Shown: piece after piece, positions 8,301 through 26,250 of the stretch
Layout: each line of letters begins with the position of its first letter
How positions within the stretch are numbered: the stretch's first letter is position 1
Origin: Acidobacteriota bacterium
GTDB lineage: Bacteria > Acidobacteriota > Terriglobia > Bryobacterales > JACQDG01
DNA length: 37,592 nucleotides
Assembly (NCBI GenBank): GCA_016201195.1
Contig: JACQDI010000021.1
Coordinates: 1 to 37,592 of the forward strand
Direction: 5' to 3'
The notes under the pieces: generated by a model
What the model saw: the letters and a program-made list of their open reading frames with translations, nothing else
The model's database searches: none
What the model was told of the DNA's origin: nothing
Position numbers and translations under genes: made by a program

Positions 8301-8770
8301 GTGAAAAGAAGTTGCGGCCTAGCATCGGCAGGTCCAGGATCTTCTGATTGGGCACGACAGTGCTCACGGCCGTGGTGGAGGTTTCAATCAGGGAAGGCGT
8401 GCCAGTCACCTGGATGCTCTCGGTGACCGCTCCGAGCTGGAGTACGAAATCCAGCCGCAGCACCTGCCCCTCATCCAGCAGGACGCCGGCGCATTCGATC
8501 GTCTTGAATCCCGCGTTGCGCACCCGCACCTGATAGTTGCCGCGCGGCAGCAGGGGCGCCGTGTAGTAACCGAGCTCATTCGAGGTCGCAGTGCGGGTCA
8601 TTCCGGTGTCGGTGTTAGTCACCGCGATCTCCGCGGATGGAACAACGGCGTCGCTCGAGTCCGTCACTCTTCCGGTGAGCTGGGCCGTCTGCGCAAAGGA
8701 AATGGTCGCGAAAGCTACGCACAGCAAAAAGCCCGGCCAAAAGATGCCGCGTCCAAATCTTTGAAGTCAT
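5369..8770 (-). pseudogene. TonB-dependent receptor with two reading-frame disruptions (pseudogene or assembly indels)
   Basis: ATG at 8770 has a GAGGAGG Shine-Dalgarno and encodes MTSKIWTRHLLAGLF. The frame then slips in an A5 run (8726-8730). With A4 it would read ...AGLLLCVAFATISFAQTAQLTGRVTD. A second slip lies at about 7898-7905: FNQYGA|LWEAAL should read FNQYGGTLGGRLVRDKTFFFFNWEQVAQRG, as in the paralogues. The ORF track shows this as overlapping ORFs 7744..8727 and 5369..7843. The C-terminus is IQFGLKLYF. Confidence 0.7.
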
Positions 8771-11894: not shown

Positions 11895-12409
11895 TCAGAA
11901 CCCGTACTTGAGGCCGAACTGGATCACCCTGGCCTGGCCGGCGCTCAGAATCCTGCCAAAATTCGCGCTGTTCAAGGTGCTGTTCGGATTGTTCAGGTTG
12001 ACCTGGTTGAAGAAGTTGAAGAACTCGGAACGGAACTGGAGACGGCGGCGCTCCCGCAGCCGGAGTGTCTTGAAAAACGAAACCGTCCAGCTCATCGAGC
12101 CCGGGCCGTAAAGGAGATTGCGGCCGGCGTTACCGGCGAAGCCGTCGGGCGCCGCCACAAACACGGCCGTGTTGAAGTACCCCGCGATCCGCTCGTCCCT
12201 GGGCCTGTCCTCCGAAAGACGGGGATTGCCGGTGAGGTTCGGGCGGTCATTGCTGCTGCCGTCCAGGTTCGTATCGCGGCCCGAGACGATGTTGAACGGG
12301 CTGCCGCTGTCGAACCGGGTGATTCCATTGAGCTGCCAGCCGCTTAGCACGTGCCGCCCGATCCGGCCCCAACGACGGATCTCGGGGATCTCCCACACCT
12401 CTTCTGAGC
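11895..12409 (-). pseudogene. C-terminal ~170-aa remnant of a TonB-dependent receptor
   Basis: WEIPEIRRWGRIGRHVLSGWQLNGITRFDSGSPFN...LQFRSEFFNFFNQVNLNNPN...RVIQFGLKYGF aligns with the last ~170 aa of receptor 1..2319. Homology begins within a few nt of the MarR stop codon (12410-12412). Plug, N-terminal domain and promoter are all absent. Confidence 0.75.
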
Positions 12410-12922
12410 CTACCTGAAGTTCTGCTCTTTGCTCTTTCCTGAACCTTCTTCTGGCCGACCCGTGCTTCTGGAATTCGTCATAACCTCGGCGACGCGCTCC
12501 AACGTGCCCAATACCGTCACTCGCACCGCCCGCGGGAAACATTCCTCCAGCTTCTGCCGGAGGTCCTCGCAGCTTTCGACCAGCAACCCAAGCAGCCGGC
12601 GCCCGGCAGCCGTCAGGTAAACGCGGCGCGACCGGCCATCCTGAGCGTGAATCTTCCGCCGGATGAGGTTCCGCTTCTCCAGCAGGGCGACCATGGCGGC
12701 AATCGTATTAGGGTCGGAAAACATCCGGCGCGCCAGTTCCTTCTGCGTGATGCCTCCCTGCTGGTTCAGCACCTTCAACAGGACGAACTGATCTGCGGTA
12801 GCGTCGAGTGGGGCAAAACGAAACTCAACTGTGCGGTGCATCGTCAGATAGGCGCCGCGAAGCCTCATAGCCGTAGACCAGGGAAACGCGCGGGGGTCCT
12901 TGCGAATCGATCTCTTCACCAT
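12410..12922 (-). CDS. MarR-family transcriptional regulator
   Basis: Winged-helix core: DQFVLLKVLNQQGGITQKELARRMFSDPNTIAAMVALLEKRNLIRRKIHAQDGRSRRVYLTAAGRRLL. I prefer the ATG at 12922 over the listed TTG at 12940. Confidence 0.85.
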   Translation of the reverse strand: MVKRSIRKDPRAFPWSTAMRLRGAYLTMHRTVEFRFAPLDATADQFVLLKVLNQQGGITQKELARRMFSDPNTIAAMVALLEKRNLIRRKIHAQDGRSRRVYLTAAGRRLLGLLVESCEDLRQKLEECFPRAVRVTVLGTLERVAEVMTNSRSTGRPEEGSGKSKEQNFR

Positions 12923-13532: not shown

Positions 13533-14210
13533 CTAGCGAGCTGGCGCCAACACCTTGACGGCGATGTTGCGGAAGCGGTGGTAGCCGTTCCATCGCTTTT
13601 CCATATGCACCTGCAGGGCGATCATCCCGTCCTCGGCGCCATCGGCCGTGCGGTTCGCCGTATCCTTCCAGTCGGTAATCTTGAGGCCGTTCAGCCACAC
13701 CGTGATGTGCGGCGGGCTGCCCTCGATCCGGGCGCGCAGCGTATTCCAGTCCTCCTTCCGCCAGACCTTTTCCCATCCCTCCGCTCGATGCAAGGGGATC
13801 CCCGGCCTGTCCAGGCCGTTGAGCTTTTCTCCAAAGATCCCGCCGATGTTACCACGTTCGAGGTAGTCGATCAGGACTTGGTAGGCCTGGCCCCTCTCGT
13901 TGGAGCGGAGAAACAGGCCGCCGTCACAGCCCCAATCCGGCTTGATTTCCAGGTAAACCTCGACGTCCTTATACCTTGTATCGGTCAGCAGGATGCCGCC
14001 GTTGCCCGGCCGGTCCTGGCTGGCGAACAGCACGCTGTCTTCGACACGCCACGCCTGCGTGTTCCCGTGATGGTTCGTTTGACTGATATGCCACCCGGAA
14101 AGGTCTTTCCCGTTGAAGATCGGTGTAAAGCCGGGGGGGATCTGGCCGGTCTGCCCGAACAGGGGCAGGGCCAGCAAACACGCAACAGCGAGATTCGGGC
14201 AGATGCGCAT
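13533..14210 (-). CDS. DUF1080 (3-keto-disaccharide-hydrolase-like) domain protein, secreted
   Basis: MRICPNLAVACLLALPLFGQ signal peptide, then FNGKDLSGWH...WRVEDSVL...ALQVH...FRNIAVKVL, the typical DUF1080 jelly-roll pattern. I prefer the ATG at 14210 (GGGAG 6 nt upstream) over the listed start at 14255. Confidence 0.85.
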   Translation of the reverse strand: MRICPNLAVACLLALPLFGQTGQIPPGFTPIFNGKDLSGWHISQTNHHGNTQAWRVEDSVLFASQDRPGNGGILLTDTRYKDVEVYLEIKPDWGCDGGLFLRSNERGQAYQVLIDYLERGNIGGIFGEKLNGLDRPGIPLHRAEGWEKVWRKEDWNTLRARIEGSPPHITVWLNGLKITDWKDTANRTADGAEDGMIALQVHMEKRWNGYHRFRNIAVKVLAPAR

Positions 14211-14225
14211 ATCGGGCTCCCATGG

Positions 14226-14245
14226 TTCCTTTGGTTTCCTTTGGT
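14226..14245. repeat. Perfect 10-nt tandem duplication TTCCTTTGGT x2
   Basis: Copies at 14226-14235 and 14236-14245, in the divergent DUF1080 / oxidoreductase intergenic region. Confidence 0.8.
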
Positions 14246-14319
14246 TGCCCAGCATAGCAGGTCGCCAGCGTCTGTGCTAGAATTCCGCCGAGAATCCGGA
14301 CCAACCAGGGAGGTGATTT

Positions 14320-15489
14320 GTGAGTGATCTGCGCACCGACAGAAGAGGGTTTCTGCTGGGCATGGCGGCGCCCTTGTTCGTCCCCAGCGCCGCGCGGGGG
14401 GCGAACGACCGAATTGTCTTTGGCCTGATCGGCTCAGGGCTTCGCGGGCCGTTTGTTTCGGAAGCTTTCATCGAGCTCGGCGCCAAGCTGGCCGCGATCT
14501 GCGACGTTTACGAGCTCCACGCCGCCAAGAAGATCAGCGCCGATGCCGCGGTCTATACCGATTACCGCCGCCTGCTGGAGCGCAAGGACATCGACGCCGT
14601 CCTCATCGCCACTCCCGATCACCACCATGCCCCGATGTTGAAGGCCGCGCTGGCCGCCGGCAAGGACGTTTATCTGGAAAAACCCATGTCCCACTCGATT
14701 ACCGAAGGCGTCGAGATGATCCGGGCGGCCCGCGCAACCAAGCAGATCGTCCAAATCGGCATGCAGCGGCGCAGCGCGCCATGGCTGATCGAGGCCAAGA
14801 AGCTGGTGGATGAAGGCCTTCTGGGCAAGGTTCACCTGGCGCGGGCGCAGTGGAAGGCAAATAATGCCAGGGCTCTGGATAACTCGCCCCTCCCCGGCAA
14901 GCTGGATTGGGACCAATTCCTCGGCCCGGCGCCCAAGCGTCCCTTCGAGCCGATGCGCTTCCGCCGCTGGCGCAACTTCTGGGATTACTCCGGGGGCAAC
15001 ATGACCGACCAGGGCACGCACGTCATGGACGTCGTTCAGTGGTTCACCAACTGCGGCGCCCCCCGATCCGCGGTCTGCCATGGCGGTATCTACGAGACGC
15101 CAGGATCGGAGGTTCCGGACTGCTTCACCGCCGTGTTTGAATACCCCGACATGATGGCCACCTGGACGCTGAACTACACCAATTCTTACGAGAACAATTG
15201 GAGCGTGCGCCTGGAAGGCCGCAAAGCCACGATGATTCTCGACACCACCGGCTACCGCGTCTACCAGGAGCCAGCCGCCAAAAATCCGGAACCCAGCCAC
15301 CGGGTGACCGCCAGATTGCAGAACGAGCCGCATGTGCAGAATTTCCTGGACTGCATCCGTTCGCGCCAGCAGCCCAACGCGCCGGTCGAGGTCGGCCACG
15401 GCGCCGTCTGCGGCCCGCACCTGGCCAACATTGCGTTCCTCACGAAACGCCAGGCCTTTCTGAACCCGCAGGCCACCGAGGTCTACTGA
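14320..15489 (+). CDS. Gfo/Idh/MocA-family oxidoreductase with Tat signal
   Basis: GTG start preceded by GGAGG. Tat motif DRRGFLLGMAAPLFVPSAARGA. Rossmann motif IVFGLIGSGLRG. EKP motif (YLEKPMS). Confidence 0.9.
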   Translation: MSDLRTDRRGFLLGMAAPLFVPSAARGANDRIVFGLIGSGLRGPFVSEAFIELGAKLAAICDVYELHAAKKISADAAVYTDYRRLLERKDIDAVLIATPDHHHAPMLKAALAAGKDVYLEKPMSHSITEGVEMIRAARATKQIVQIGMQRRSAPWLIEAKKLVDEGLLGKVHLARAQWKANNARALDNSPLPGKLDWDQFLGPAPKRPFEPMRFRRWRNFWDYSGGNMTDQGTHVMDVVQWFTNCGAPRSAVCHGGIYETPGSEVPDCFTAVFEYPDMMATWTLNYTNSYENNWSVRLEGRKATMILDTTGYRVYQEPAAKNPEPSHRVTARLQNEPHVQNFLDCIRSRQQPNAPVEVGHGAVCGPHLANIAFLTKRQAFLNPQATEVY

Positions 15490-15541: not shown

Positions 15542-17566
15542 ATGAGCCGTCGTCTTGCCACGTTGTTTGCTGTGACAGCAGCCCTATTAGCGGCTCCTCC
15601 CGTCAAACTCAGTTCGCCTAATGGACGCATCGTGGTTACGATCGGATTGAACGAGGAGTTGGCGCCATACTACAACATTTCCTACCGCGGAGCCCCTGTG
15701 GTGCTTGACTCCACCTTGGGGTTCGAGTTGGAACGTATGCCCGCTCTGAGCCGTGGATGGGAGTGGCAGGCGGAGGAGCGCCGCAGCAGGGATGAGACCT
15801 ACACCATGGTCTATGGGACCCGGGACAAGATCCGAGACCACTACCATGAGTGCACCGTCTCGGTGGTTGAAAAGTCGGCGCCCCGGCGAAAAATGAGGCT
15901 CGTTTTCCGCGCTTACGATGAGGGTGTCGCGTTTCGGTATGAGTTGCCCCGGCAGGAAGAGCTCCGCGAGTTCAGCATCGCCCAGGAGAACACCCGCTTC
16001 CGGTTCGCCGCCAACCATCCCGCGTATGCCATGAATCTCGGCAAGTTCACCAGCCCTCATGAGTCGGAGTTCAAGCGGATCACGCTGGCCGACATCCGGC
16101 CGGGTTCGGTCTGCGGAATGCCGGCGTTGATCGAGATTCCCGAACGGACCTGGGTTGCGCTGACCGAGGCCAATCTCGCCAACTACGCGGGCATGTACCT
16201 GACGGGCGTAGAGGGAGCGCCGCACACACTGGCCTCGAGCCTTTCGCCGCTGCCCGACCCGGACCCTCTGCCGGCCGAGCCCGGCAGCAGGCGGCGCACC
16301 ATCGAGCCGAATCCATCCAATCCCAAGGTCCGAGCGTCGACCCCACTGCTCACTCCCTGGCGTGTTGTGATGATCGGCGCAACCCCAGGCGAGCTGATCG
16401 AAAACAACTACCTAGTTTTGAATCTGAATGAGCCGTGCGCTATCCGCGATCCGTCGTGGATCAAGCCCGGGCGGGCGGCGTGGAATTGGTGGTCGGGAAG
16501 CATCGTCAAGGATGCGGGCTTCGAAGGCGGCATGAACACCGCGACGATGAAGTACTACATCGATTTCGCCGCCGATCACAACCTGGAGTACATGTTGATT
16601 GACGCCCGTTGGTCGCCGGTCGACGACATCACGCGGAGCGTTCCTGAAATCAACATCCCGGAGATTGTGGCGCATGCGAGCCGGCGCGGCGTGCGGGTTC
16701 TTCTGTGGGCGCATTGGTCCGCGGTAGACAGACAGATGGACGTAGCCTTTCCGCTCTATCGGAAGTGGGGAATTGCCGGGGTAAAGGTCGACTCGATGAA
16801 CCGCGACGACCAACAGATGGTGGACTTCTGCCAGCGCGTGGTGCGCCGGGCGGCCGAGAACCGCCTGTTGGTCAATTTTCACGGCACTTATAAGCCCGAT
16901 GGGATCCAACGCACCTGGCCCAATCTGGTTACACGAGAGGCCGTGCTGGGGCTGGAATACGACAAGTTCAGCGACCGCGCCACCCCCGAGCACGACGCGA
17001 CCATTCCGTTCACACGCATGCTGGCGGGGCCGATGGACTACACGCCCGGCGCTTTCCGCACGGTTTTCAAGAAAGACTTCAAGGCGACGCGAACCGAGCC
17101 GGTTGCCCTGGGCACACGTTGCCACCAACTGGCGCTGCTCGTGGTGTTGGAAAGCCCGTTGCTCGTGCTGGCGGACCATCCCGCCGCTTATCGTGGCCAG
17201 CCGGGGATCGAGTTTGTCAAGCAGGTGCCCACTACCTGGAACGAGACGCGGGTGATCCAGGGGCAAGTGGCCGACTACATCACGATCGCGCGCCGGCACG
17301 GCCGCGACTGGTATGTCGGCACCTTGACCGATTGGGACCCGCGGGAGCTGAAGATTCCGCTGAGCTTTCTTGGCGAGGGAAAGTACATGGCTGAGATTTA
17401 CTCCGATGCCCCGCCGGCTGACCGGTTGCCAACGCATGTCTCGATCGAGAAGAAGATTGTCACGGCCGCGGACACGATCCTCGCTCGGATGGGGCCCGGA
17501 GGAGGTCACGTGATGCGGCTGGCGCCCGCCCCGGACGGAGTGGCTCGCAGGAGGCAGAGTAGATGA
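15542..17566 (+). CDS. Glycoside hydrolase family 97 (alpha-glucosidase/alpha-galactosidase type)
   Basis: GH97-type N-terminal domain (SPNGRIVVTIGLNEELAPYYNISYRGAPVVLDSTLGFEL) and catalytic core (YMLIDARW..., YRKWGIAGVKVDSMNRDDQQMVDF..., NFHGTYKPDGIQRTWPNLVTREAVLGLEY). Confidence 0.9.
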   Translation: MSRRLATLFAVTAALLAAPPVKLSSPNGRIVVTIGLNEELAPYYNISYRGAPVVLDSTLGFELERMPALSRGWEWQAEERRSRDETYTMVYGTRDKIRDHYHECTVSVVEKSAPRRKMRLVFRAYDEGVAFRYELPRQEELREFSIAQENTRFRFAANHPAYAMNLGKFTSPHESEFKRITLADIRPGSVCGMPALIEIPERTWVALTEANLANYAGMYLTGVEGAPHTLASSLSPLPDPDPLPAEPGSRRRTIEPNPSNPKVRASTPLLTPWRVVMIGATPGELIENNYLVLNLNEPCAIRDPSWIKPGRAAWNWWSGSIVKDAGFEGGMNTATMKYYIDFAADHNLEYMLIDARWSPVDDITRSVPEINIPEIVAHASRRGVRVLLWAHWSAVDRQMDVAFPLYRKWGIAGVKVDSMNRDDQQMVDFCQRVVRRAAENRLLVNFHGTYKPDGIQRTWPNLVTREAVLGLEYDKFSDRATPEHDATIPFTRMLAGPMDYTPGAFRTVFKKDFKATRTEPVALGTRCHQLALLVVLESPLLVLADHPAAYRGQPGIEFVKQVPTTWNETRVIQGQVADYITIARRHGRDWYVGTLTDWDPRELKIPLSFLGEGKYMAEIYSDAPPADRLPTHVSIEKKIVTAADTILARMGPGGGHVMRLAPAPDGVARRRQSR

Positions 17567-20448
17567 AGCGTGCACAATTCCGGTGGTGGGCGGCCCTGGC
17601 CGGGGCCGCGGTCTCGGGATCCGCCTATCTATGGACTGCTTGGACTGCTCGAGCGGGCGACGCGCCGATTTCGGTCGCCGGATTAGAGAAAACGGTCTCC
17701 GCCAGGCTGATGTTTGGTCTTAAGCGCCTGACGCCACTGCGGTGGGATGGCGAGATCCGTGTCGACAAAGGGCGTGTGATACGTCTCAACGGGGTGCACT
17801 TCGAGGAACGGGACACCATCCTGGGTCCCAACCGCTGGCTGCTGACCACGCGCGTCACCAACTATGCGGACTCCAGCATGCCGCGCGGGTACGACCCGGT
17901 GCACACGCGGCCCTACGCGATGATTCCTAATGGTGTCGTGGCGACGATCGAGGCCGGGCCGGCAGCTCAGGCGGAGATCCGGACCGAGTCGGGCAGCTTT
18001 TCGTTCCGTTTGGGGGAACTGCAATTGGGACGGCCGAAAGCCTTCCTTGACGGCGAGGCCAGCGCCGAACTGATTCCCACGACCATCGATCTGACCAGGC
18101 AAGAAGGCGTCAGCGACTACCCGGCGCTGGCGGTGGACCGCAGCGGGGACGTTTGGGCTACGTGGATTACCTACGCGGATCGCAAAGATGCGGTATGGGT
18201 TGCCCGGCGATCCTCCAACGGCTGGGAGACGCCCGTTCAGGTGACTCCCCCCGAGCATGACGACAACTTCCGCACCGCCATCGCCGAAGACGCCGCCGGA
18301 CGCCTGTGGGTCGTCTGGTCAGGCAAACGGAACGGAAAGTGGGGCTTGCATTCCCGCTATTTCGCCGGCGGGAAATGGTCGGAGGCGGAGGTCCTGACCG
18401 GAGACAGCGGAGCGAATTTGTATCATGTGCTCGCGCGCGACGCCAGAGGGAGACTACACCTGGTTTGGCAGGGATTTCGGAATCGGAAGTCGGAAATCTT
18501 GTGGCGCGTGTGGGATGGCCAGAATTGGTCGCCGGAGACAAGGGTCAGCAACGGGGAAGGAGACAACTGGATACCCGCTGCCGCCGCCGACTCGAAAGGC
18601 AACCTCTGGATCGGGTGGGATGGCTATGAGACGGGCGATTTTAACGTTTATCTCCGGCGTGTGGACGCGGCGGGCAGGCTTGGCGAACGTATACAGGTTA
18701 CGCGGTCGCCGGTATTTGACGCCAACGTCTCGCTGGCGGTCGATCACCAGGACCGGCTGTGGATCTCCTGGGATCACGGCGAGGCAAACTGGGGCAAGGA
18801 CTGGACGAGCCAGCGCTTTAAGCCAGGCGGCGGCGCCGGGCTGTACCGCTGGCGCAAAGTTCGCGTCGCCTGCCTGGACGGCAACCGGCTCAAACAACCC
18901 GCCGGCGACATCATGGATGCCGTACCGCCCGAGTACAAGGACTATTTTCAGATGGCACGGTTGCAGCCCGACAGCCAGGGGCGTATCTGGGCACTGGGCC
19001 GCTCGCTGACGACCACGACCGTGCGTGTCAACAATAATTGGGGGGCCGGCGGGCGCTGGGAAGCGCTGCTGACCCGCCTGGATCAGAACGGTTGGATGCC
19101 GGCGATCCGACTCGACGCCACCGCCGGGCGCAACGATGTGCGCGTCCACAGCCTGATGGACCCGAGCGGAAAACTGTGGTTCGCCTGGTCGCGCGACGGC
19201 CGCCCTTTCGGAACCGACTCGCCGCGCAACCGGCGTCCGGAACCCGGGAAAACCGCGGTCAGCTACACCGTCATCGAACCCTCCCCAGGGCGGGAAAATG
19301 TGCGGCTTGTTCCGTTCGCCGAGCCCGCCATGTCAGTGAAGCCAGTACATCCTAACGAAGCCGAGGATGTTACAGCGATCCGATCTTATCGCTACCAGGT
19401 CGGCGGGAAGCGTTACCGGATCCTGCGAGGTGACCTGCACCGGCACACCGATATTTCCTTCGATGGCATCGGCGACGGTTCGCTGCTCGACTTTTTCCGC
19501 TATGCATTTTCCGCCGGCCAATACGATTTCATGATGGTCGCCGACCATCAGTACGGCGGAGCCAGCGGCATAGGTTTGGAATACAACTGGTGGCGGACCG
19601 AAAAATCCGAGGACATCTTTTTGGTGGAGGGGCGTTTTTGGCCGCTTTTCGGCACCGAGCGCAGCGTGCCGTATCCCAACGGACACCGGAACACCATTTT
19701 CGCAAACAGGGGCCACCGCGAGTTGCCCATTTCTCGCGAAGAGGCGGCGGGCAAATTGAATACCGGCCCGCTCCTCTACCCATACCTGCGGAGCAAGGGC
19801 GGCATAACGACCTCGCACACTCCGGCCACCGAGCAGGGCACTGACTGGCGGGACAATGACCCGGAGCTGGAACCGATAGTCGAGATCTACCAAGGCCTCC
19901 ACGCCTCCTATGAGTACGAAAACGCGCCGCGCGCCGAGACGCCGGACCGGCGCTATTTTCATCATGGGGAACCGTGGCGGCCGGCGGGTTTCGTGTGGAA
20001 CGCCTGGGCCAAAGGTTTGAAGTTGGGCGTCCAGGCCAGCGCCGACCACATCGCCACGCATGACGCCTACGCTTGCGTTCTGGTGGATGAGAATGCGTTG
20101 CACAGCCGCCAGGACATCATCGACGCAATGAAGGCCCGCCACACATACGCCGCCACCGATAACATCATTGTCGATTTCCGCATTGGTGATCATATTATGG
20201 GGGACATTCTGACAGCCTCCCAGCCGCCGGTCCTGAAGGTGAGAGTCATTGGCGCCGGCCCTCTGGCCCGGGTCGTGGTGATCAAGAATAACAGGCTGGT
20301 CCACGCAGTCGAACCCGGCCAGAAAGAAACTGCTTTCGACTTCCGGGATAACGATTTCCAGAAAGGCGAAAGTTACTATTACGTGCGCGTCGAGCAGGTC
20401 GATGGATCCCTGGCGTGGTCGAGCCCCATCTGGGTGAAGAACGAGTGA
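17563..20448 (+). CDS. Exported beta-propeller + PHP-superfamily (DUF3604/CehA-McbA-like) metallohydrolase fusion, paralogue 1
   Basis: The ATG overlaps the GH97 stop (ATGA). There are about six blade repeats of ~48 aa of the type D..G.LW..W...R.G.W.....Y..G.WS....V. The C-terminal domain has PHP-like metal motifs: GDLHRHTDISFDG, VADHQ, GHRN, TSHT and ASADH. The protein ends ...YYYVRVEQVDGSLAWSSPIWV. Confidence 0.85.
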   Translation: MKRAQFRWWAALAGAAVSGSAYLWTAWTARAGDAPISVAGLEKTVSARLMFGLKRLTPLRWDGEIRVDKGRVIRLNGVHFEERDTILGPNRWLLTTRVTNYADSSMPRGYDPVHTRPYAMIPNGVVATIEAGPAAQAEIRTESGSFSFRLGELQLGRPKAFLDGEASAELIPTTIDLTRQEGVSDYPALAVDRSGDVWATWITYADRKDAVWVARRSSNGWETPVQVTPPEHDDNFRTAIAEDAAGRLWVVWSGKRNGKWGLHSRYFAGGKWSEAEVLTGDSGANLYHVLARDARGRLHLVWQGFRNRKSEILWRVWDGQNWSPETRVSNGEGDNWIPAAAADSKGNLWIGWDGYETGDFNVYLRRVDAAGRLGERIQVTRSPVFDANVSLAVDHQDRLWISWDHGEANWGKDWTSQRFKPGGGAGLYRWRKVRVACLDGNRLKQPAGDIMDAVPPEYKDYFQMARLQPDSQGRIWALGRSLTTTTVRVNNNWGAGGRWEALLTRLDQNGWMPAIRLDATAGRNDVRVHSLMDPSGKLWFAWSRDGRPFGTDSPRNRRPEPGKTAVSYTVIEPSPGRENVRLVPFAEPAMSVKPVHPNEAEDVTAIRSYRYQVGGKRYRILRGDLHRHTDISFDGIGDGSLLDFFRYAFSAGQYDFMMVADHQYGGASGIGLEYNWWRTEKSEDIFLVEGRFWPLFGTERSVPYPNGHRNTIFANRGHRELPISREEAAGKLNTGPLLYPYLRSKGGITTSHTPATEQGTDWRDNDPELEPIVEIYQGLHASYEYENAPRAETPDRRYFHHGEPWRPAGFVWNAWAKGLKLGVQASADHIATHDAYACVLVDENALHSRQDIIDAMKARHTYAATDNIIVDFRIGDHIMGDILTASQPPVLKVRVIGAGPLARVVVIKNNRLVHAVEPGQKETAFDFRDNDFQKGESYYYVRVEQVDGSLAWSSPIWVKNE

Positions 20449-20675
20449 GAAGTTGTGCCGGAGGCGCCACAGGCGCTGGCGCGGGCCCAGCGCACAGCGC
20501 ATTTGACGTCCCGCGTCCGGCCGGGATTCCCCTTGCGATACGCGACATTCTCAACGACGGTCCTGTCAGGATGTGTCCCGGCGGCGGCTCCCTGTTGTGG
20601 CTTGGCGAAGGATTTCACTCCAGCTTTCTGAAGCCGTGGTCGAAATAGCGCATGCGCAGATTCACCTCCCAAATC

Positions 20676-23204
20676 CTATTTGTAATGGACGAACATCGGG
20701 CTTGACCAGGCGAGCATTTGATCGTCCTGCTGCAGGCGAATGTAGTAGTAATGATGGCCCTTCCTTGAGTCCCTGTCTGTAAATTCGAACTCCACATTCT
20801 GTTTCCCGGGTTCGGTCGAATAGATGACTTTGCTGTCTTTGATGACATCCACCTTGGCAATGGCGCGGGTGCCGCGCGCCTTGACCCGCAGCGGCAGGCT
20901 TCGGGTGAGCGTGAATTCGTCTCCCATGAAGTGATCGCCCATGCGGACCTCCAGAAGGATGTTGTCCATCGCCCCGTACGTGTGCCGCTTGCGGATGGCG
21001 TCCAGAACCCCGACTCGGGACAGGTCGTCTGTATAGACCATGGCATAGGAGATATGCGTCGAATTGTGGTCCGAACTGGCGATGATCCCAAGCTTGTACC
21101 CCTTGGCCCAAGCGTTGGAAACCATGCCTTCAGGCTGGTGCCCCACCCGCTGCATGAGACCCTCGTCTTGCGGCGCTACGTTGACCAGGGGCGCGCCAAG
21201 CTGTTCGTAGCTGCTCCGATTCCCCTGGTAGATCTCCACCACCGGCTCCAGATCCGGATCGTTGTCGCGCCAGTCGGTCCCCTGGTTGGTTCCCGAGGTA
21301 TGAGAGATGGCGATAGCGTTTCGACTTCGAATCTCTTCGTACAGCAATTTCGTGTCGTTAACCGCCAGTTCATTGCTGTAAGGAGGGTCCTCTGCTAGCC
21401 CCGGTGGTATTGGAAGGCCGAACCTTCGCACCCCGGCCTTCAAGAAAAATGGAGTAATCCTCGATTCCGAGCGCCTGGCGAAGAAGATGTTTCGGTGACC
21501 ATTCGGGAACTGCGCACTGCGTTCGTAGCCGAAGATCCCGGCATAGGCGCCGGGCACATGGTACATGTCCGTCAACTTCTGGGTGTACCACCACCAGTAC
21601 GGCCAGAGCCCGCCTTGGTGGTCGGTGGCAGCCCCGAAATCCATCGCCGCGACATCGATCATGTAGCGAAAGAAATCCTGCAGCGAACCGTCGCCCGAGC
21701 CCCCCAGATCGTAGCTCAATTCGGTGTGCCGGTGAAAGTCGCCGCGGAGGATCCGAAACTTCCGTCCCCCGAGTGTTGCCGTGTAGGAGCGAATCGCTCT
21801 CACATCGGCGGCCTCATCGGCGTGGCCTGTCTTTGCCTGAATGGATTCTGCCTCTGGCTCCCGGAGCGCTACGGATTCTTGGCGGGCCGGCGCGGAAAGC
21901 ATGCCAGCGTAAACCTGTTGCCGGATAGGGCGGTGGTAGTTAGCGGGCCGGCGGTTGTCGGTCGGCCATGCCAGCCATAAGCTGTTTTCAGCGCTCAGTG
22001 CTCCACTGATCCTCGTACTGGGTCGGCCCTTGCTGTTCGGCAACGGAATCGCCTTCAACCAGTCGTTTCCGGCCAATCGCGTGATCCAATACTCCCAGTA
22101 GTAGCGCGGCCTTCCTGCGCCGTCGCCCCCCGCCCCGCGAACTTTCGCGGCTACCCACACCGACCCGAGCCCATCGGAAAAAACGTGGGGATGAAAGGCA
22201 TACCCGGACTGGAAGGCCTCGGCCAATCGCGCCGCAGGCTCACGCCACTGCCCGCTCGCATAGCACTGGATCCGAGGCTCGCGAAATCCGCCGAGCTGAA
22301 CGCCGGGCGCCCGACCCCGAACTTTATACCCTTGATCCTTTCCCCAATTCGGTGCGCCCGCCTCCCAGGCCACCCAGACCCGATCCGACGAATCGACGGC
22401 CACAGTGGCCCTCGCTTCGAAGCGGGGCGTGCTCGCCACCGCTATCTCCGGGCCCTGAACTTCAACGTTTCGCACCTGGGAGAGGAACACATCGTAGTCG
22501 CCGTTCTTGTAGCTGTCGTAAACTACCCACGCTGTTCCCTTGCTGTCGATAGCCACCGCCGGCTCCCAATCATTCGCCGCGCGGTTGGTCACTCGCACCT
22601 CGGGCGACCATTTCTCGCCGTCGAAAGTCTTTAAGAAGATGTTGCTGTGCCGGCCGCGGAAACCCTGCCAAACCAGGGCGAACTGGCCCTTGCCATTCGA
22701 AGCGAGCCGCGGGTTGATGTCCGGCAGGGGATCAGATGTCAAACGCTCCACGGCGCTCCATTCCTGATTGCTCGGGTCGAAACGCCGGGCATAAAGATCC
22801 CAGTTGCCGTTCACCTGTTGGGACCACACGACCCACACCCGGTTGGAAGCGTCAACGGCCACCTGCGGGAGAAAGCTGTCTCCACTGGTGTTGGGGACCC
22901 ACTGGATGCTGTCCCACCTGTTCTCCCGGAAACGCCGGAGGGCAACATCGTCGCGATCACCCACAAAGCTGAGCCATGCGACCCACACTGAGCCGTCCGG
23001 CGCCGTGGCAATCGAGGGCAGGTCATCCTGTCGGAACTCGTGGCCGACAGCGGTGGCGGCAATCTGCGCCTCTCCAGCCGGTAGTTGCGAAGAGGCCGCC
23101 AGCGCCTCGCCAAAAACCCTCTCGGGCCTGCGCACCGCCCGCCAACCTGCAAGAGCGAGAACCACGGTGGCAGTTGCTAATGCCAAAAGGCGTCTCAGGG
23201 GCAT
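20676..23204 (-). CDS. Exported beta-propeller + PHP-superfamily metallohydrolase fusion, paralogue 2
   Basis: Same architecture as 17563..20448: GDFHRHTELSYD, TDHQ, GHRN, ISHTSGTNQGTDWRDNDPDLEPVVEIYQG, SSDH, and ...YYYIRLQQDDQMLAWSSPMFV. It lacks the extra ~120-aa N-terminal domain of paralogue 1. By eye it is roughly 40% identical over the PHP half. Confidence 0.85.
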   Translation of the reverse strand: MPLRRLLALATATVVLALAGWRAVRRPERVFGEALAASSQLPAGEAQIAATAVGHEFRQDDLPSIATAPDGSVWVAWLSFVGDRDDVALRRFRENRWDSIQWVPNTSGDSFLPQVAVDASNRVWVVWSQQVNGNWDLYARRFDPSNQEWSAVERLTSDPLPDINPRLASNGKGQFALVWQGFRGRHSNIFLKTFDGEKWSPEVRVTNRAANDWEPAVAIDSKGTAWVVYDSYKNGDYDVFLSQVRNVEVQGPEIAVASTPRFEARATVAVDSSDRVWVAWEAGAPNWGKDQGYKVRGRAPGVQLGGFREPRIQCYASGQWREPAARLAEAFQSGYAFHPHVFSDGLGSVWVAAKVRGAGGDGAGRPRYYWEYWITRLAGNDWLKAIPLPNSKGRPSTRISGALSAENSLWLAWPTDNRRPANYHRPIRQQVYAGMLSAPARQESVALREPEAESIQAKTGHADEAADVRAIRSYTATLGGRKFRILRGDFHRHTELSYDLGGSGDGSLQDFFRYMIDVAAMDFGAATDHQGGLWPYWWWYTQKLTDMYHVPGAYAGIFGYERSAQFPNGHRNIFFARRSESRITPFFLKAGVRRFGLPIPPGLAEDPPYSNELAVNDTKLLYEEIRSRNAIAISHTSGTNQGTDWRDNDPDLEPVVEIYQGNRSSYEQLGAPLVNVAPQDEGLMQRVGHQPEGMVSNAWAKGYKLGIIASSDHNSTHISYAMVYTDDLSRVGVLDAIRKRHTYGAMDNILLEVRMGDHFMGDEFTLTRSLPLRVKARGTRAIAKVDVIKDSKVIYSTEPGKQNVEFEFTDRDSRKGHHYYYIRLQQDDQMLAWSSPMFVHYK

Positions 23205-23290: not shown

Positions 23291-25066
23291 TCACTCGTCG
23301 AGCCATCGCAAAGAAACTTCCTTGAGATTCATCACCGCGGCGCCGGGTTTGCTGAGGGCTTTCACGGTCAGCGTCGATCTGCCGGCTTTCAGCGGGAACC
23401 GGCCGAGCCGAAGTCGCGCCCAATGCATTTCGGGGTAGACGTTCTCGGGAATGACGCATTTGCTCGGTTTGCGGGTCATCGGGGTGGGCTGTGTGATCGT
23501 GGCCTGGAGACTCTGGCCCGCCGCGCTGACAGCAATCTTTGCGCCAACGTCGCCTTGCGGGCAGAGATAGCTGAGCGTGACTTCGTACTGGCCGGCGCGA
23601 ACAACGTCGATGTCCCAATACACGGAGTCTTCGAGGCGGTTCCAACCGGTGATCCAGTCGTGCGCGTATCCCACCCCGCCGTGGAATCTTAGGGCGCCGT
23701 GAAAGTAACTCTGCGGGGCCGGCAGGATCACCGGGTTTTCTTCGGCGTAGCCGGCGGGAATCGGCCGGCGGTGGAAACCCCGCTCGCCGAGAGCCTCGCG
23801 ATACCAGGCTTCGTAGGCAGACCGCAACTCCGTTACCTTTTGCGGATGCTTACTGGCGATGTTGTTCTGCTCGACGGGGTCCACGATCATATCGTACAGC
23901 TCTTCTCCATTAACCAGATTGAAGCGTTGTGTTCGCACGGCGCCGGGATACATGGACGCGGGGTCCTCCAGGCTCTCGCGGTGCGTGAAGACCATGCGCT
24001 CAGGCCAGTTTTGCCGCTCGCCGAACAACAGCGGCCGCAGGCTGCAGCCATCAATCCGCAGCCCCTTCGGCTGGACGACGCCACATAGATCGAGAAGAGT
24101 CGGGAAGACGTCAATGTGAGCGGCGATTGTGTTGACGCGCTTGCCCGCTTCCAGACGCTCCGGCCAGCGGATGAAGAATGGCGCTCGCACGCCGCCTTCA
24201 TAAACGCTTCCCTTAGACCCGCGCAGGCCCGCGTTGAACCGCCGCCCATTGGGACCGTTATCGGTCAAGAAAATCACGATCGTGTTCTTGGAAAGACCGA
24301 ACTGATCCAGCCGGGCCAGCAACCGGCCGATGTTCTCATCCAGGTTGGTGACCATTGCGTAGACCGCGGCCGTGGTCCCCGGCAGTCTGGCTGCTTCAAA
24401 AGGGCGGAAATAGGATACTGGCACCTGGAAGGGAGAGTGGGGCGCGTTGTAGGCCAAATAAAGAAAGAAGCGCCTCTCGCGGTTGCCCTCCAGGAACCGG
24501 ATCGATTCGTCGGTGAGCGCGTCAGTGACATATCCCTTGGTCTGGACCGGCTTGCCGTTGCGCTCCAGCTCGGAATCGAAATAATTCATCCAGTGTCCGG
24601 TGCGGAATCCCACAAATTCATCGAATCCCTGGCCATGGGGGAGGTAGGGGTAATGCTCGCCGAGATGCCATTTCCCGAACAGCGCGGTACGGTATCCGGC
24701 GCCGCGGAGAGCTTCGGCGATAGTGGTCTCGCCGGTATGCATGGTTTCCCGGCCGTGGGTCACGCCATAGACGCCGCACCGCACGTTGTAACGTCCGGTC
24801 AACAGACTCGCGCGCGTCGGCGCGCAGACGGGGGAGACATAGAAGCGGGTGAACTCGACCCCCTGGCGGGCCAGCTTATCGAGGTTCGGCGTCTTCAGGT
24901 GCGGATTGCCGTGCAAAGAGAGATCGCCGTAGCCCTGATCGTCGCTCATGACGAGCAGGACGTTGGGCGGCCGGCGGGTTTGTCCCGAGCCGGGGGCTGA
25001 TAGAGCCATGGTCCCGCCTGCCAGGGCCGTCATCCATTCGCGTCGGGTGAGATTAGGACTCTTCAG
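23291..25066 (-). CDS. Cys-type (formylglycine) sulfatase, probable Tat substrate; start codon uncertain
   Basis: LLVMSDDQGYGDL...SPVCAPTRASLLTGRY (C-x-P-x-R). The first ATG (25033) falls inside a twin-arginine motif (LTRREW-M-TALAGG). The only plausible upstream in-frame start is CTG at 25066, which overlaps the preceding stop as CTGA. Confidence 0.85.
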   Translation of the reverse strand: MKSPNLTRREWMTALAGGTMALSAPGSGQTRRPPNVLLVMSDDQGYGDLSLHGNPHLKTPNLDKLARQGVEFTRFYVSPVCAPTRASLLTGRYNVRCGVYGVTHGRETMHTGETTIAEALRGAGYRTALFGKWHLGEHYPYLPHGQGFDEFVGFRTGHWMNYFDSELERNGKPVQTKGYVTDALTDESIRFLEGNRERRFFLYLAYNAPHSPFQVPVSYFRPFEAARLPGTTAAVYAMVTNLDENIGRLLARLDQFGLSKNTIVIFLTDNGPNGRRFNAGLRGSKGSVYEGGVRAPFFIRWPERLEAGKRVNTIAAHIDVFPTLLDLCGVVQPKGLRIDGCSLRPLLFGERQNWPERMVFTHRESLEDPASMYPGAVRTQRFNLVNGEELYDMIVDPVEQNNIASKHPQKVTELRSAYEAWYREALGERGFHRRPIPAGYAEENPVILPAPQSYFHGALRFHGGVGYAHDWITGWNRLEDSVYWDIDVVRAGQYEVTLSYLCPQGDVGAKIAVSAAGQSLQATITQPTPMTRKPSKCVIPENVYPEMHWARLRLGRFPLKAGRSTLTVKALSKPGAAVMNLKEVSLRWLDE

Positions 25067-26250
25067 CGTTGGCCGTCCGGGCGCCGCTTCAGAAGCTCTT
25101 CGGCCGCGCGGACTTGTCCTTCCGAGCCTGCCGCGCGGCGGGCCGCGGCTCCACCGTCAGGGTCGACTTCCCAACGCACGACATACTCCTGCGTGACCGG
25201 CTTGCACCACTTCTCCGAGCAGGCAAAGTAGCGGAAGACGATCCGCGCGGGCTCCTTCGAGTTGCCGCGGTCGGCGTCCACGAGAAACTCCCGCGGGTCC
25301 GCGTCGGCCTCCGCCTCCACTTTCGGTCCCTGTCCTTTGCTGGGCGAAATCTGGACGCCCTCGGGGGGATGGAACTCGTACTGCACGGGGGCTACCAGAT
25401 TGTTCCAGTGCACGCCATACAGCGGGTCAAGATGAAAACCGAGGTAGAGCTTCCCTTTGCCGGAGCGAAGGAAATTCCCATCAGCCTCGACACGCGGCTT
25501 AACGTAGAATGGCTCCTTGCTCTTTTGAAGCTGGGGCTCGATCCTCAGCGCCAGGTACCGCTCCGGGAGCTTGACCCGCGGGACGATGCCCGTAGGAGCA
25601 TGCTTCGGCGGCGGCTCCACCTTCAGGTTGAGGTCCGACACCTTGGTCGGGTTCTCCACTGGCCCCACCAGCTTTTCCAAGTCCTTGCGCAGGGCGTCCG
25701 GATCGCTCCAGCCGCGCTTGCGAACGATTTTGCCCTCCGGATCGAGCAGGTATTCCGAGTTGGGAGCATCACCAGTGGCGTGCTTGAGCTCGTTAGACAT
25801 GGTGTCGCAGACCCAGGGAATCTCCGTGCCGAGCGTGCGCCGGGCTTCCTTGATCTGCATCAGGCGCTCCTCGAGGGTGACCGGCGTGACGTAGCCGTGG
25901 AGCTCAGGGTGCGCCAGCGCCTTATACAAGTAGAAGAATTGAACGCCCTTCGGCGCGTAATCTCGATAGACCGTCTCCAAACTGGGGACGTTTTTCCGGA
26001 AGGGCGGTCAAGTCAGGCAGCCGTTGACGATGACTGTGTACTTCCCCTTGAGGCTTCTGGTGTTGAACCGCTTGCCCTCGGCATCGTGAATGTCTACCTC
26101 GGGGAAGTGGTCACCCACTTTCAGGCGGAACGCCTGAAACCGGTCCTCCAAAGCCTCCCGTGCGGACTTGCCCTGCGTGGGTTGAGCCAAGGCCACGCAT
26201 ATCGTGGAAAGGGCTGCAAGGAGCGCCGCTGCAGTTTGCGAGAATCTCAT
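25063..26250 (-). CDS. Secreted iodothyronine-deiodinase-like thioredoxin-fold protein with in-frame UGA (candidate Sec at codon 26010..26008) fused to a DsbD-alpha-like domain
   Basis: ATG at 26250 lies 7 nt after AGGAGG and gives the signal peptide MRFSQTAAALLAALSTICVALAQP. The frame reads ...KGKYTVIVNGCLT-TGA-PPFRKNVPSLETVYRDYAPKGVQFFYLYKALAHPE...LEERL...PWVCDTMSN...EYLLDPEGKIVRKRGW...LRKDLEKL. TGA is the only interruption: it is followed by nine sense codons, then the TTG at 25980 listed as the start of the next ORF, in the same frame. The C-terminal ~200 aa end in FRYFACSEKWCKP, which resembles the DsbD N-terminal domain. Confidence 0.7.
25969..26010 (-). promoter_or_regulatory. Candidate bacterial SECIS hairpin starting within the UGA
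   Basis: mRNA U-GACCG-CCCU-UCCGGA-AAAACGUCCCCAG-UUUGGA-GA-CGGUC. Lower stem: 26009-26005 pairs with 25973-25969 (5 Watson-Crick bp). Upper stem: 26000-25995 pairs with 25981-25976 (4 Watson-Crick bp plus 2 G.U). The 13-nt apical loop contains GU at +22/+23 from the U of UGA. Confidence 0.4.

Follow-up and report, generated by a model that had tools for sequence, protein, structure and literature searches.

The window analysed here is a stretch of 37,592 bp (positions 1 to 37,592 of contig JACQDI010000021.1, assembly GCA_016201195.1) from a bacterium of the order Bryobacterales (Acidobacteriota). It contains two convergent genes encoding large paralogous proteins, in which a β-propeller is fused to a C-terminal metallohydrolase module of the PHP type. 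These proteins belong to an uncharacterised, propeller-fused subfamily of the DUF3604/CehA-McbA/PHP-like metallohydrolases, and do not constitute a categorically new system. The organisation of the two genes, the relationships of the module they encode, its distribution in bacteria and the function that may be proposed for it are considered below.

Two convergent genes and their domain architecture

The longer protein (961 residues) is referred to here as paralog 1 and the shorter one (842 residues) as paralog 2. The genes are arranged as follows:

17563..20448, plus strand: paralog 1, ATG start, 961 residues; signal peptide or anchor, β-sandwich, seven-bladed propeller, PHP-like barrel, immunoglobulin (Ig)-like β-sandwich
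20449..20675, no strand: spacer of 227 bp between the convergent stop codons
20676..23204, minus strand: paralog 2, ATG start, 842 residues; signal peptide or anchor, seven-bladed propeller, PHP-like barrel, Ig-like β-sandwich

Both open reading frames (ORFs), with their ATG starts, lie exactly where an initial annotation, made from the letters of the sequence, had placed them. The like architecture that it ascribed to the two proteins is also borne out, as BLASTP aligns them with a score of 534 bits (E 0.0), at 38% identity and 54% positives over 807 residues; such a score and level of identity indicate paralogy rather than chance resemblance. Paralog 1 has an N-terminal surplus of about 180 residues over paralog 2, and the BLASTP alignment begins at its residue 185. 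No terminator-like or promoter-like sites were found in the 227-bp spacer between the two genes.

The ATGA overlap between paralog 1 and an upstream GH97 gene, read in the same annotation as translational coupling, is visible in the sequence: the TGA stop codon of the GH97 gene overlaps the start codon of paralog 1 (ATGA), and a GGAGG motif is found 9 nucleotides before this start codon. The database gene call for paralog 1 (P0121, 890 residues) begins at 17776, 71 codons further downstream, and lacks the hydrophobic N-terminus. The ATG at 17563 is favoured over the start of the 890-residue call because orthologs of 945–965 residues have the N-terminal region in common with the 961-residue reading, and because of the ATGA/GGAGG arrangement.

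The domains of the two proteins, delimited by structure prediction with AlphaFold2 (AF2), structure comparison with Foldseek, profile comparison and alignment between the paralogs, map to the DNA as follows:

17563..17652, plus strand: paralog 1, putative signal peptide or membrane anchor (residues 1–30); AF2 helix at 2–30; hydrophobic segment MKRAQFRWWAALAGAAVSGSAYLWTAWTARA
17695..18075, plus strand: paralog 1, extra N-terminal β-sandwich (residues ~45–171); strands predicted by AF2 with a predicted local distance difference test score (pLDDT) above 90; missing from paralog 2
18109..19317, plus strand: paralog 1, seven-bladed β-propeller (residues ~183–585); AF2, Foldseek and Pfam Reg_prop
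19390..20160, plus strand: paralog 1, PHP-like metallohydrolase barrel (residues ~610–866); limits set by alignment to the model of paralog 2
20161..20445, plus strand: paralog 1, C-terminal Ig-like β-sandwich (residues ~867–961), ending in AWSSPIWV; aligned to the sandwich of paralog 2
20679..20957, minus strand: paralog 2, C-terminal Ig-like β-sandwich (residues 750–842), ending in AWSSPMFV; AF2, pLDDT 95–98
20958..21782, minus strand: paralog 2, PHP-like metallohydrolase barrel (residues ~475–749); AF2, Foldseek, hhalign and ligand invariance
21855..23042, minus strand: paralog 2, β-propeller (residues ~55–450); seven blade motifs, aligning to the propeller of paralog 1
23130..23204, minus strand: paralog 2, putative signal peptide or anchor (residues 1–25); MPLRRLLALATATVVLALAGW; hydropathy

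The N-terminal signal or anchor previously proposed for both proteins is consistent with their hydrophobic N-termini; in paralog 2, the top 12-residue window averages 2.45 on the Kyte-Doolittle hydropathy scale. A hydrophobic segment is present within the first 45 residues in 191 of 224 homologs. Judging from these sequences, both paralogs are most likely to be exported or membrane-anchored multidomain enzymes.

The propeller was modelled with AF2 from the N-terminal 589 residues of paralog 1 and an alignment of 68 sequences (pLDDT 93; predicted template modelling score, pTM, 0.91). The model has four-stranded blades starting near residues 183, 235, 285, 335, 386, 461 and 529, five of which are regular and two longer. 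W-x-W blade motifs repeat every 50 residues or so, and those of paralog 2 lie near residues 74, 124, 176, 226, 277, ~350 and 410. The initial annotation was thus correct about the propeller repeats but not about their number, which it gave as about six blades of ~48 residues: there are seven in the AF2 model of paralog 1, and the motifs are found in both proteins. Its list of domains also lacked the two β-sandwiches found by AF2, namely the N-terminal one of paralog 1 and the terminal Ig-like one. The Pfam model Reg_prop matches paralog 1 (2.9e-11, 42.6 bits vs a cut-off of 20.4); it has no match in paralog 2, although the whole propeller of this protein aligns to that of paralog 1 by BLASTP.

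A Foldseek comparison of the N-terminal model of paralog 1 with the PDB yielded 545 matches at E≤1e-3, mostly to 6- and 7-bladed propellers. The top matches include CylK, the Photorhabdus PLL/PHL lectins, the GH145 enzyme BT3686, PL42 and PL25 enzymes and sialidases (E 1e-8 to 1e-12). The PLL/PHL lectins, GH145 BT3686, PL42 and PL25 have the same fold and seven blades (target-normalised template modelling (TM) score 0.6–0.69), but their sequence identity is 10–15%, none of them is joined to a PHP-like domain, and no catalytic or sugar-binding motif was shown to be common to them and the window proteins. As modelled, the propeller of paralog 1 is a generic one, resembling both sugar-binding and sugar-cleaving propellers. 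The propeller could itself be catalytic, in the manner of GH145, PL42, PL25 or GH33, in which case the proteins would be bifunctional, or mainly glycanases with the PHP-like module as an accessory. The matches to GH145 BT3686, PL42 rhamnose-glucuronate lyase, PL25 ulvan lyase and sialidases (E ~1e-8 to 1e-9) would be in keeping with this, as would the eight polar propeller residues that are invariant in both paralog types (D185, D353, Y355, K412, D413, R431, R523 and D545 in paralog 1 numbering). However, the identity to these enzymes is 10–15%, and lectin propellers without catalytic activity give scores at least as good. None of the CAZy-family Pfam models has a match, most of the propeller residues that never vary are structural tryptophans, and the candidate ligands of the PHP-like domain are as strictly kept as any residue. 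A catalytic propeller is, in our view, very unlikely.

The PHP-like module and its relatives

The C-terminal 388 residues of paralog 2 (the domain fragment) were modelled with AF2 from an alignment of 30 sequences (pLDDT 85, pTM 0.89). The model consists of an α/β barrel (fragment residues ~21–291) followed by an all-β domain (296–387, pLDDT 95–98), for which Foldseek returned Fn3-like, CARDB and RhoGDI β-sandwich matches. The best PDB match of the fragment is 3E38 (E 9.4e-10, probability 1.00, TM-score 0.42/0.46), and all the other significant PDB matches cover the terminal sandwich only. The model thus supports the PHP-type fold that had been proposed for the C-terminal half, as does the homology to DUF3604 and CehA/McbA proteins detected with hhalign (see below).

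3E38 (BVU_3505 of Bacteroides vulgatus), described as a 'PHP-like metal-dependent phosphoesterase', is the only solved homolog of the PHP phosphodiesterases Sb-PDE and No-PDE, and this group has a trinuclear metal site (PMC11656708). In No-PDE numbering, the α metal is liganded by H61, H63 and D260, the β metal by H142 and H203, and the γ metal by D68, H93 and H262, with E135 as the bridging residue (PMC11656708). The window proteins resemble 3E38, Sb-PDE and No-PDE in having a two-domain module made up of a PHP barrel and a C-terminal β-sandwich, and in the order of the candidate ligands (H-x-H, D, H, E, H, H, D, H), with Asp instead of His in third place. By contrast, 3E38 and Sb-PDE are only ~340 residues long, have no β-propeller and have D-x-H as their last motif, where the window proteins have D-H-x3-H; nor do profile searches of PDB sequences detect any sequence similarity between 3E38 and the window proteins.

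The barrel contains the invariant motifs GDxHRHT, DHQ, ERS, GHRN, SHT, VEIYQG and S(A/S)DH. The candidate ligands are H491, H493, D499, H529, E561, H570, H635, D712 and H713/H717 in paralog 2 (H37, H39, D45, H75, E107, H116, H181, D258 and H259 or H263 in fragment numbering), and H626, H628, D634, H662, E699, H708, H752, D828 and H829/H833 in paralog 1. Eight of the nine PHP ligand positions are occupied by invariant residues, in the canonical order and with a spacing similar to that in No-PDE, and the candidate ligands are kept in 231–232 of 232 homologs, in proteins only 30–40% identical overall. The His/Asp motifs quoted in the initial annotation are all present and invariant. The motif AWSSP(I/M)(W/F)V, which it had assigned to the PHP domain, is also present, but it belongs to the separate Ig-like β-sandwich. 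Three arginines stand beside the candidate ligands of paralog 2: R492 between the first two His, R562 after E561 and R571 after H570. R492 and R562 are invariant, and R571 is found in 224 of the 232 homologs.

Loss of catalysis is known for the PHP domains of some lineages, as in E. coli DnaE, and the propeller is lectin-like according to Foldseek; the proteins could, on these grounds, be non-enzymatic surface proteins with a glycan-binding or structural role and a degenerate PHP-like fold. Ligand invariance in a family with such low overall identity is, however, typical of active enzymes, and it renders a non-enzymatic binder highly improbable.

The initial annotation suggested that the proteins may be exported enzymes removing a phosphate or other ester from a glycan, which is plausible. 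In a narrower form of this idea, they would be specific extracellular phosphoesterases (mono- or diesterases) that act on phosphorylated glycans or further organic phosphorus compounds and liberate phosphate. In structure, the best match, 3E38, does belong to the Sb-PDE/No-PDE phosphodiesterase group, with its trinuclear zinc site (PMC11656708), but the nearest named relatives by sequence are DUF3604 and the CehA/McbA carbamate hydrolases. Characterised PHP enzymes are mostly phosphoesterases, and invariant arginines beside the ligands would suit such an activity; against this, none of the known phosphatase family models scores above noise, and genes of the phosphate regulon or for phosphate transport are not recurrent near members of the family. 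A phosphoesterase is possible, albeit on the doubtful side.

For DUF3604 (Pfam PF12228) and CehA/McbA, two of the models against which the initial annotation had proposed to check the domain, profile comparison reveals clear homology, whereas the scores of the window proteins are marginal or too low. With DUF3604 (cut-off 20.4 bits), paralog 2 scores 20.7 bits, over residues 537–588 only, and paralog 1 scores 9.2 bits; the match in the window proteins spans just 30–55 residues of a 591-position model. The same model matches 29 of 30 aligned family members at E≤0.1 (best E 2e-12). An hhalign comparison of the domain profile with the haloarchaeal DUF3604 protein WP_276256034.1 gave a probability of 99.67% (E 1.7e-25) over 308 columns, spanning the barrel and the β-sandwich and including the terminal AWASPVWF. 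The barrel and the sandwich of DUF3604 proteins are thus homologous to those of the window proteins, and the closing AW(A/S)SP(V/I)W motif is shared; the DUF3604 proteins examined differ from the propeller-fused family in having H-x-Q in place of H-R-H.

The NCBIfam model NF038032 (CehA_McbA_metalo) matches 27 of 30 family members, with a best E of 2.9e-23. It was missed by a full-length NCBIfam scan and emerged only when the isolated domain was used: on the isolated domain of paralog 2, it scores 47.6 bits vs a cut-off of 80 bits (E 1.5e-12), over model positions 163–314 only, corresponding to fragment residues 244–385 (late barrel and β-sandwich). With hhalign, the domain profile aligns to a CehA/McbA-family protein of Hymenobacter (WP_044517855.1) with a probability of 98.65% (E 4.5e-16) over 327 columns. 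The N-terminal part of this protein consists of TIG, Fn3 and PhoD_N-like domains, not a propeller. Measured against the curated cut-offs, the window proteins rank as marginal or sub-threshold in both DUF3604 and CehA/McbA, and the barrel-plus-sandwich module is common to DUF3604, CehA/McbA and 3E38-type proteins.

The family described by NF038032 includes the hydrolases of carbaryl and carbofuran. CehA and McbA, which are 769 to ~794 residues long, hydrolyse carbamate esters and have catalytic His residues in a predicted PHP-like domain, and the specificity of CehA is tuned by position 152, which is N-terminal to this domain (PMC8292978, PMC5141477). They share with the window proteins a homologous module of PHP-like domain and β-sandwich, and are likewise large exported multidomain proteins, with catalytic His residues in the PHP-like domain (PMC8292978). 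They differ in that the window proteins fall under the family cut-off, and in that characterised CehA/McbA members hydrolyse xenobiotic carbamates and ride on mobile elements. The window proteins might nevertheless be carboxyl-, carbamoyl- or amide-bond hydrolases of this kind, acting on natural small molecules or on glycan-borne carbamate or acyl groups rather than on phosphate or sulfate. The NF038032 and hhalign matches, the similar size, the His in a PHP-like domain with esterase-type hydrolysis of carbamates and a specificity determinant lying N-terminal to that domain are all consistent with such an activity. Conversely, the score for paralog 2 is well under the NCBIfam cut-off, and the window already contains several α/β-hydrolase esterases for acyl groups. 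We consider this explanation to be rather unlikely.

Distribution of the family and genomic context

When 1.84 billion cluster representatives (50% identity) were searched with a profile, 8,344 matches were retrieved at E≤1e-3, including 1,600 at E≤1e-30, the latter mostly from Bryobacterales. Among the best 150, most are 800–1,080 residues long and carry the domain C-terminally, and those that are shorter are fragment-like; the propeller fusion is therefore the standard architecture of the subfamily. Far from being rare, the propeller-PHP fusion defines a very large family. Paralog 2 has >1,200 homologs, and the annotated members are all described as 'hypothetical' or 'DUF3604 domain-containing' (NCBI, one homolog). 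In species-representative genomes, at least 515 loci were found, mainly in Bryobacterales and other Acidobacteriota; further loci are present in Planctomycetota, Sumerlaeota and Thermoanaerobaculia, and there are often several copies per genome. Some copies are clustered: a tandem pair is found at locus L020, a convergent pair at L023, and three copies lie within ~60 kb of each other on CBDFLD010000022.1 (L049, L076 and L058; 450–508 kb). The convergent pair at L023 adjoins a sulfatase gene and a TonB-dependent receptor gene, in a layout resembling that of the window.

A distant, cytoplasmic, full-length homolog of 746 residues is encoded by plasmid p1 (NZ_CP143320.1) of the cultured Fusobacterium Cetobacterium somerae (L091:8935-11175). 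It is 23.5% identical to paralog 2 over 93% of the length of the latter, has H-G-Q for H-R-H and lacks a signal peptide. Its gene lies 24 nucleotides downstream of a glycoside-pentoside-hexuronide (GPH:cation) symporter gene, with a Crp/Fnr regulator gene nearby. C. somerae is a tractable organism for functional tests.

In the window, the pair is flanked by the following genes, whose identities, as given in the initial annotation, are upheld by Pfam:

14320..15489, plus strand: Gfo/Idh/MocA oxidoreductase (Pfam); first gene of the plus-strand run
15542..17566, plus strand: GH97 glycoside hydrolase (Pfam Glyco_hydro_97, 1.6e-100)
23291..25033, minus strand: S1 (formylglycine-type) sulfatase (Pfam Sulfatase, 6e-65), 86 nucleotides upstream of paralog 2 and on the same strand

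The window has an abundance of genes for glycan use, encoding GH97, GH127 and GH129-like enzymes, a 3-keto-disaccharide hydrolase, the Gfo/Idh/MocA oxidoreductase, several esterases, the sulfatase and several TonB-dependent receptors. The 3-keto-disaccharide hydrolase gene (13533–14255, minus strand) is divergent from the Gfo/Idh/MocA-GH97 pair, and this set of three genes recalls the oxidative (3-keto) pathways of glycoside cleavage.

The statement that the two genes close two glycan operons holds in this window but not in general. A GH97 gene adjoins a family gene at none of 81 other loci, and the closest orthologs have other neighbours. That of paralog 1 (74% identity, L093) is preceded by a gene for a 327-residue protein, and that of paralog 2 (71%) is followed by AP_endonuc_2 and FlK-like thioesterase genes. 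An 849-residue protein without a Pfam match, encoded beside a paralog 2 ortholog, was tested as a third paralog and is not one. In a further region (L086:1-15281 and L087), a 65%-identical ortholog of paralog 1 is part of a co-directional run of genes encoding a TonB-dependent receptor, a 996-residue protein, an aldo-keto reductase, the ortholog, a D-serine-dehydratase-like protein, a BNR_2 (sialidase-like) protein and a 1004-residue protein. The 327-residue product of the gene preceding the L093 ortholog has the same length as the aldo-keto reductase of this run.

Neighbouring genes were clustered from ~1,150 crudely called ORFs at 83 loci. Genes for TonB-dependent receptors recur at 19 loci and those for S1 sulfatases at 15. 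RelA, RecN, inositol monophosphatase and ExbB genes are also frequent, but this is due to housekeeping synteny within a single ortholog group rather than to function, and they were rejected as a conserved operon. An S1 sulfatase is directly adjacent at 8 of 162 positions, vs 11 of 857 other genes (odds ratio 4.0, Fisher p=0.005), a modest enrichment from a test that ignores phylogeny and uses crude ORF calls and a background that is not whole-genome. Among the directly adjacent genes that suggest a function, those for S1 sulfatases are the most frequent; they often share the strand of the family gene and either overlap it or lie very close to it. The sulfatase-adjacent members are 37–59% identical to each other and all nearer to paralog 2 than to paralog 1, which hints at a functional link between the sulfatase and the paralog 2 clade. 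TonB-dependent receptors are adjacent at 6 of 162 positions, which is not significant. Other adjacent genes encode SDR (4), AP_endonuc_2 (3), GFO/IDH/MocA (2), BNR_2 (2) and lactonase (2) proteins, and aldo-keto reductases are also among the neighbours of the family.

Several other genes of the window have unusual features. A deiodinase-like gene upstream of the sulfatase gene (25063–26250, minus strand) has an in-frame TGA codon at 26008–26010. Its deiodinase-like reading is MRFSQTAAALLAALSTICVALAQP...VNGCLT-TGA-PPFRKN..., and its motif C-x-T-U-P-P-F matches the deiodinase active site. With Cys at the TGA codon, the 395-residue protein matches AhpC-TSA (7.5e-7), Redoxin (1.3e-6) and T4_deiodinase (0.0014). 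From its sequence, the product is probably an exported selenoprotein, although the gene could be a pseudogene. No selenocysteine insertion sequence (SECIS) element was demonstrated, the 61 nucleotides from the TGA codon folding no better than shuffled ones (z-score 0.41). One TonB-dependent receptor is split between two overlapping ORFs in different frames (5369–7843 and 7744–8727, both on the minus strand), one containing CarboxypepD_reg, Plug and barrel positions 2–45 and the other containing barrel positions 69–838; a frameshift, pseudogene formation or an error in the assembly accounts for the split. Two other receptor genes are partial: the one at 11895–12542 (minus strand) is a remnant of 215 residues with barrel positions 674–838 only, and the one at 160–2319 (plus strand), near the window edge, starts at barrel position 114.

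Proposed function

The catalytic part of both proteins would be the PHP-type barrel of the DUF3604/CehA-McbA kind. The analogy with 3E38, Sb-PDE and No-PDE suggests that this barrel holds a bi- or trinuclear divalent-metal centre. In paralog 2, the α metal would be bound by H491, H493 and D712, the β metal by H570 and H635, and the γ metal by D499, H529 and H713 or H717, with E561 as the bridging ligand. The metal centre would activate water for hydrolysis of an ester-type bond. The seven-bladed propeller would most likely bind or gate the substrate, and the terminal β-sandwich is an integral part of the DUF3604/CehA-McbA module.

Because R492, R562 and R571 flank the candidate ligands, the sequence suggests that the substrate carries a negatively charged group, for instance a phosphate or sulfate ester. 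The family occurs in multiple copies in glycan-degrading phyla, and its neighbours include S1 sulfatases, TonB-dependent receptors, sugar oxidoreductases and TIM-barrel enzymes; both features suggest that the substrate is decorated and derived from a carbohydrate. From these features, we infer that the paralogs are, on balance, probably exported metal-dependent ester hydrolases, with a decorated substrate of carbohydrate origin that is probably anionic.

Several observations weigh against this interpretation. The PHP model PF02811, which the initial annotation had also proposed as a check, has no match at E≤1 in the full proteins or at E≤0.1 in 30 isolated domains; PHP-related matches among these domains are limited to weak ones with PHP_C (4 of 30, best E 0.0046) and PRK07945 (9 of 30, best E 0.0057). 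Phmmer and profile searches of PDB sequences found no relative, and in a comparison with the E. coli PHP proteins YcdX and RNase AM, hhalign aligned only motifs I–II (H-x-H...DH), with a probability of <1%, too weak a match to serve as evidence. The last ligand motif (D712-H713...H717) is D-H-x3-H and not the canonical D-x-H. The sole characterised relatives of the module, CehA and McbA, cleave carbamates and not phosphoesters (PMC8292978). Searches of the PDB and of the literature (DUF3604, PF12228, BVU_3505, PHP plus propeller) found no characterised member, solved structure or biochemical data for the family, in agreement with the initial annotation, which knew of no characterised propeller-PHP fusion. 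Finally, the gene context of the family is not conserved, the adjoining genes being mostly heterogeneous or reflecting housekeeping synteny, and the enrichment in sulfatases is subject to the limits given above.

A more far-reaching proposal is that the exported ester hydrolases favoured here represent a new class of metal-dependent glycan de-esterases, acting in concert with S1 sulfatases and TonB-dependent uptake in the Acidobacteriota and the Planctomycetota, where the propeller would be a glycan-recognition platform. Such an enzyme could be, for example, a sulfatase that does not depend on formylglycine, or else a phosphatase or carbamoyl-esterase with specificity for decorated sugars. This proposal is speculative and, as it stands, unlikely to be correct. 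A metal centre of the PHP type joined to a propeller would be an architecture new among the enzymes that break down complex organic matter. Should the group removed be a sulfate, phosphate or carbamoyl decoration on glycans, the family would fill a gap in the stripping of heavily decorated polysaccharides before the action of glycoside hydrolases, and the known chemistry of the PHP superfamily would be extended. Many copies of these genes are present in Bryobacterales and related bacteria of soil and fresh water, and the family is an abundant and well-defined target for biochemistry.

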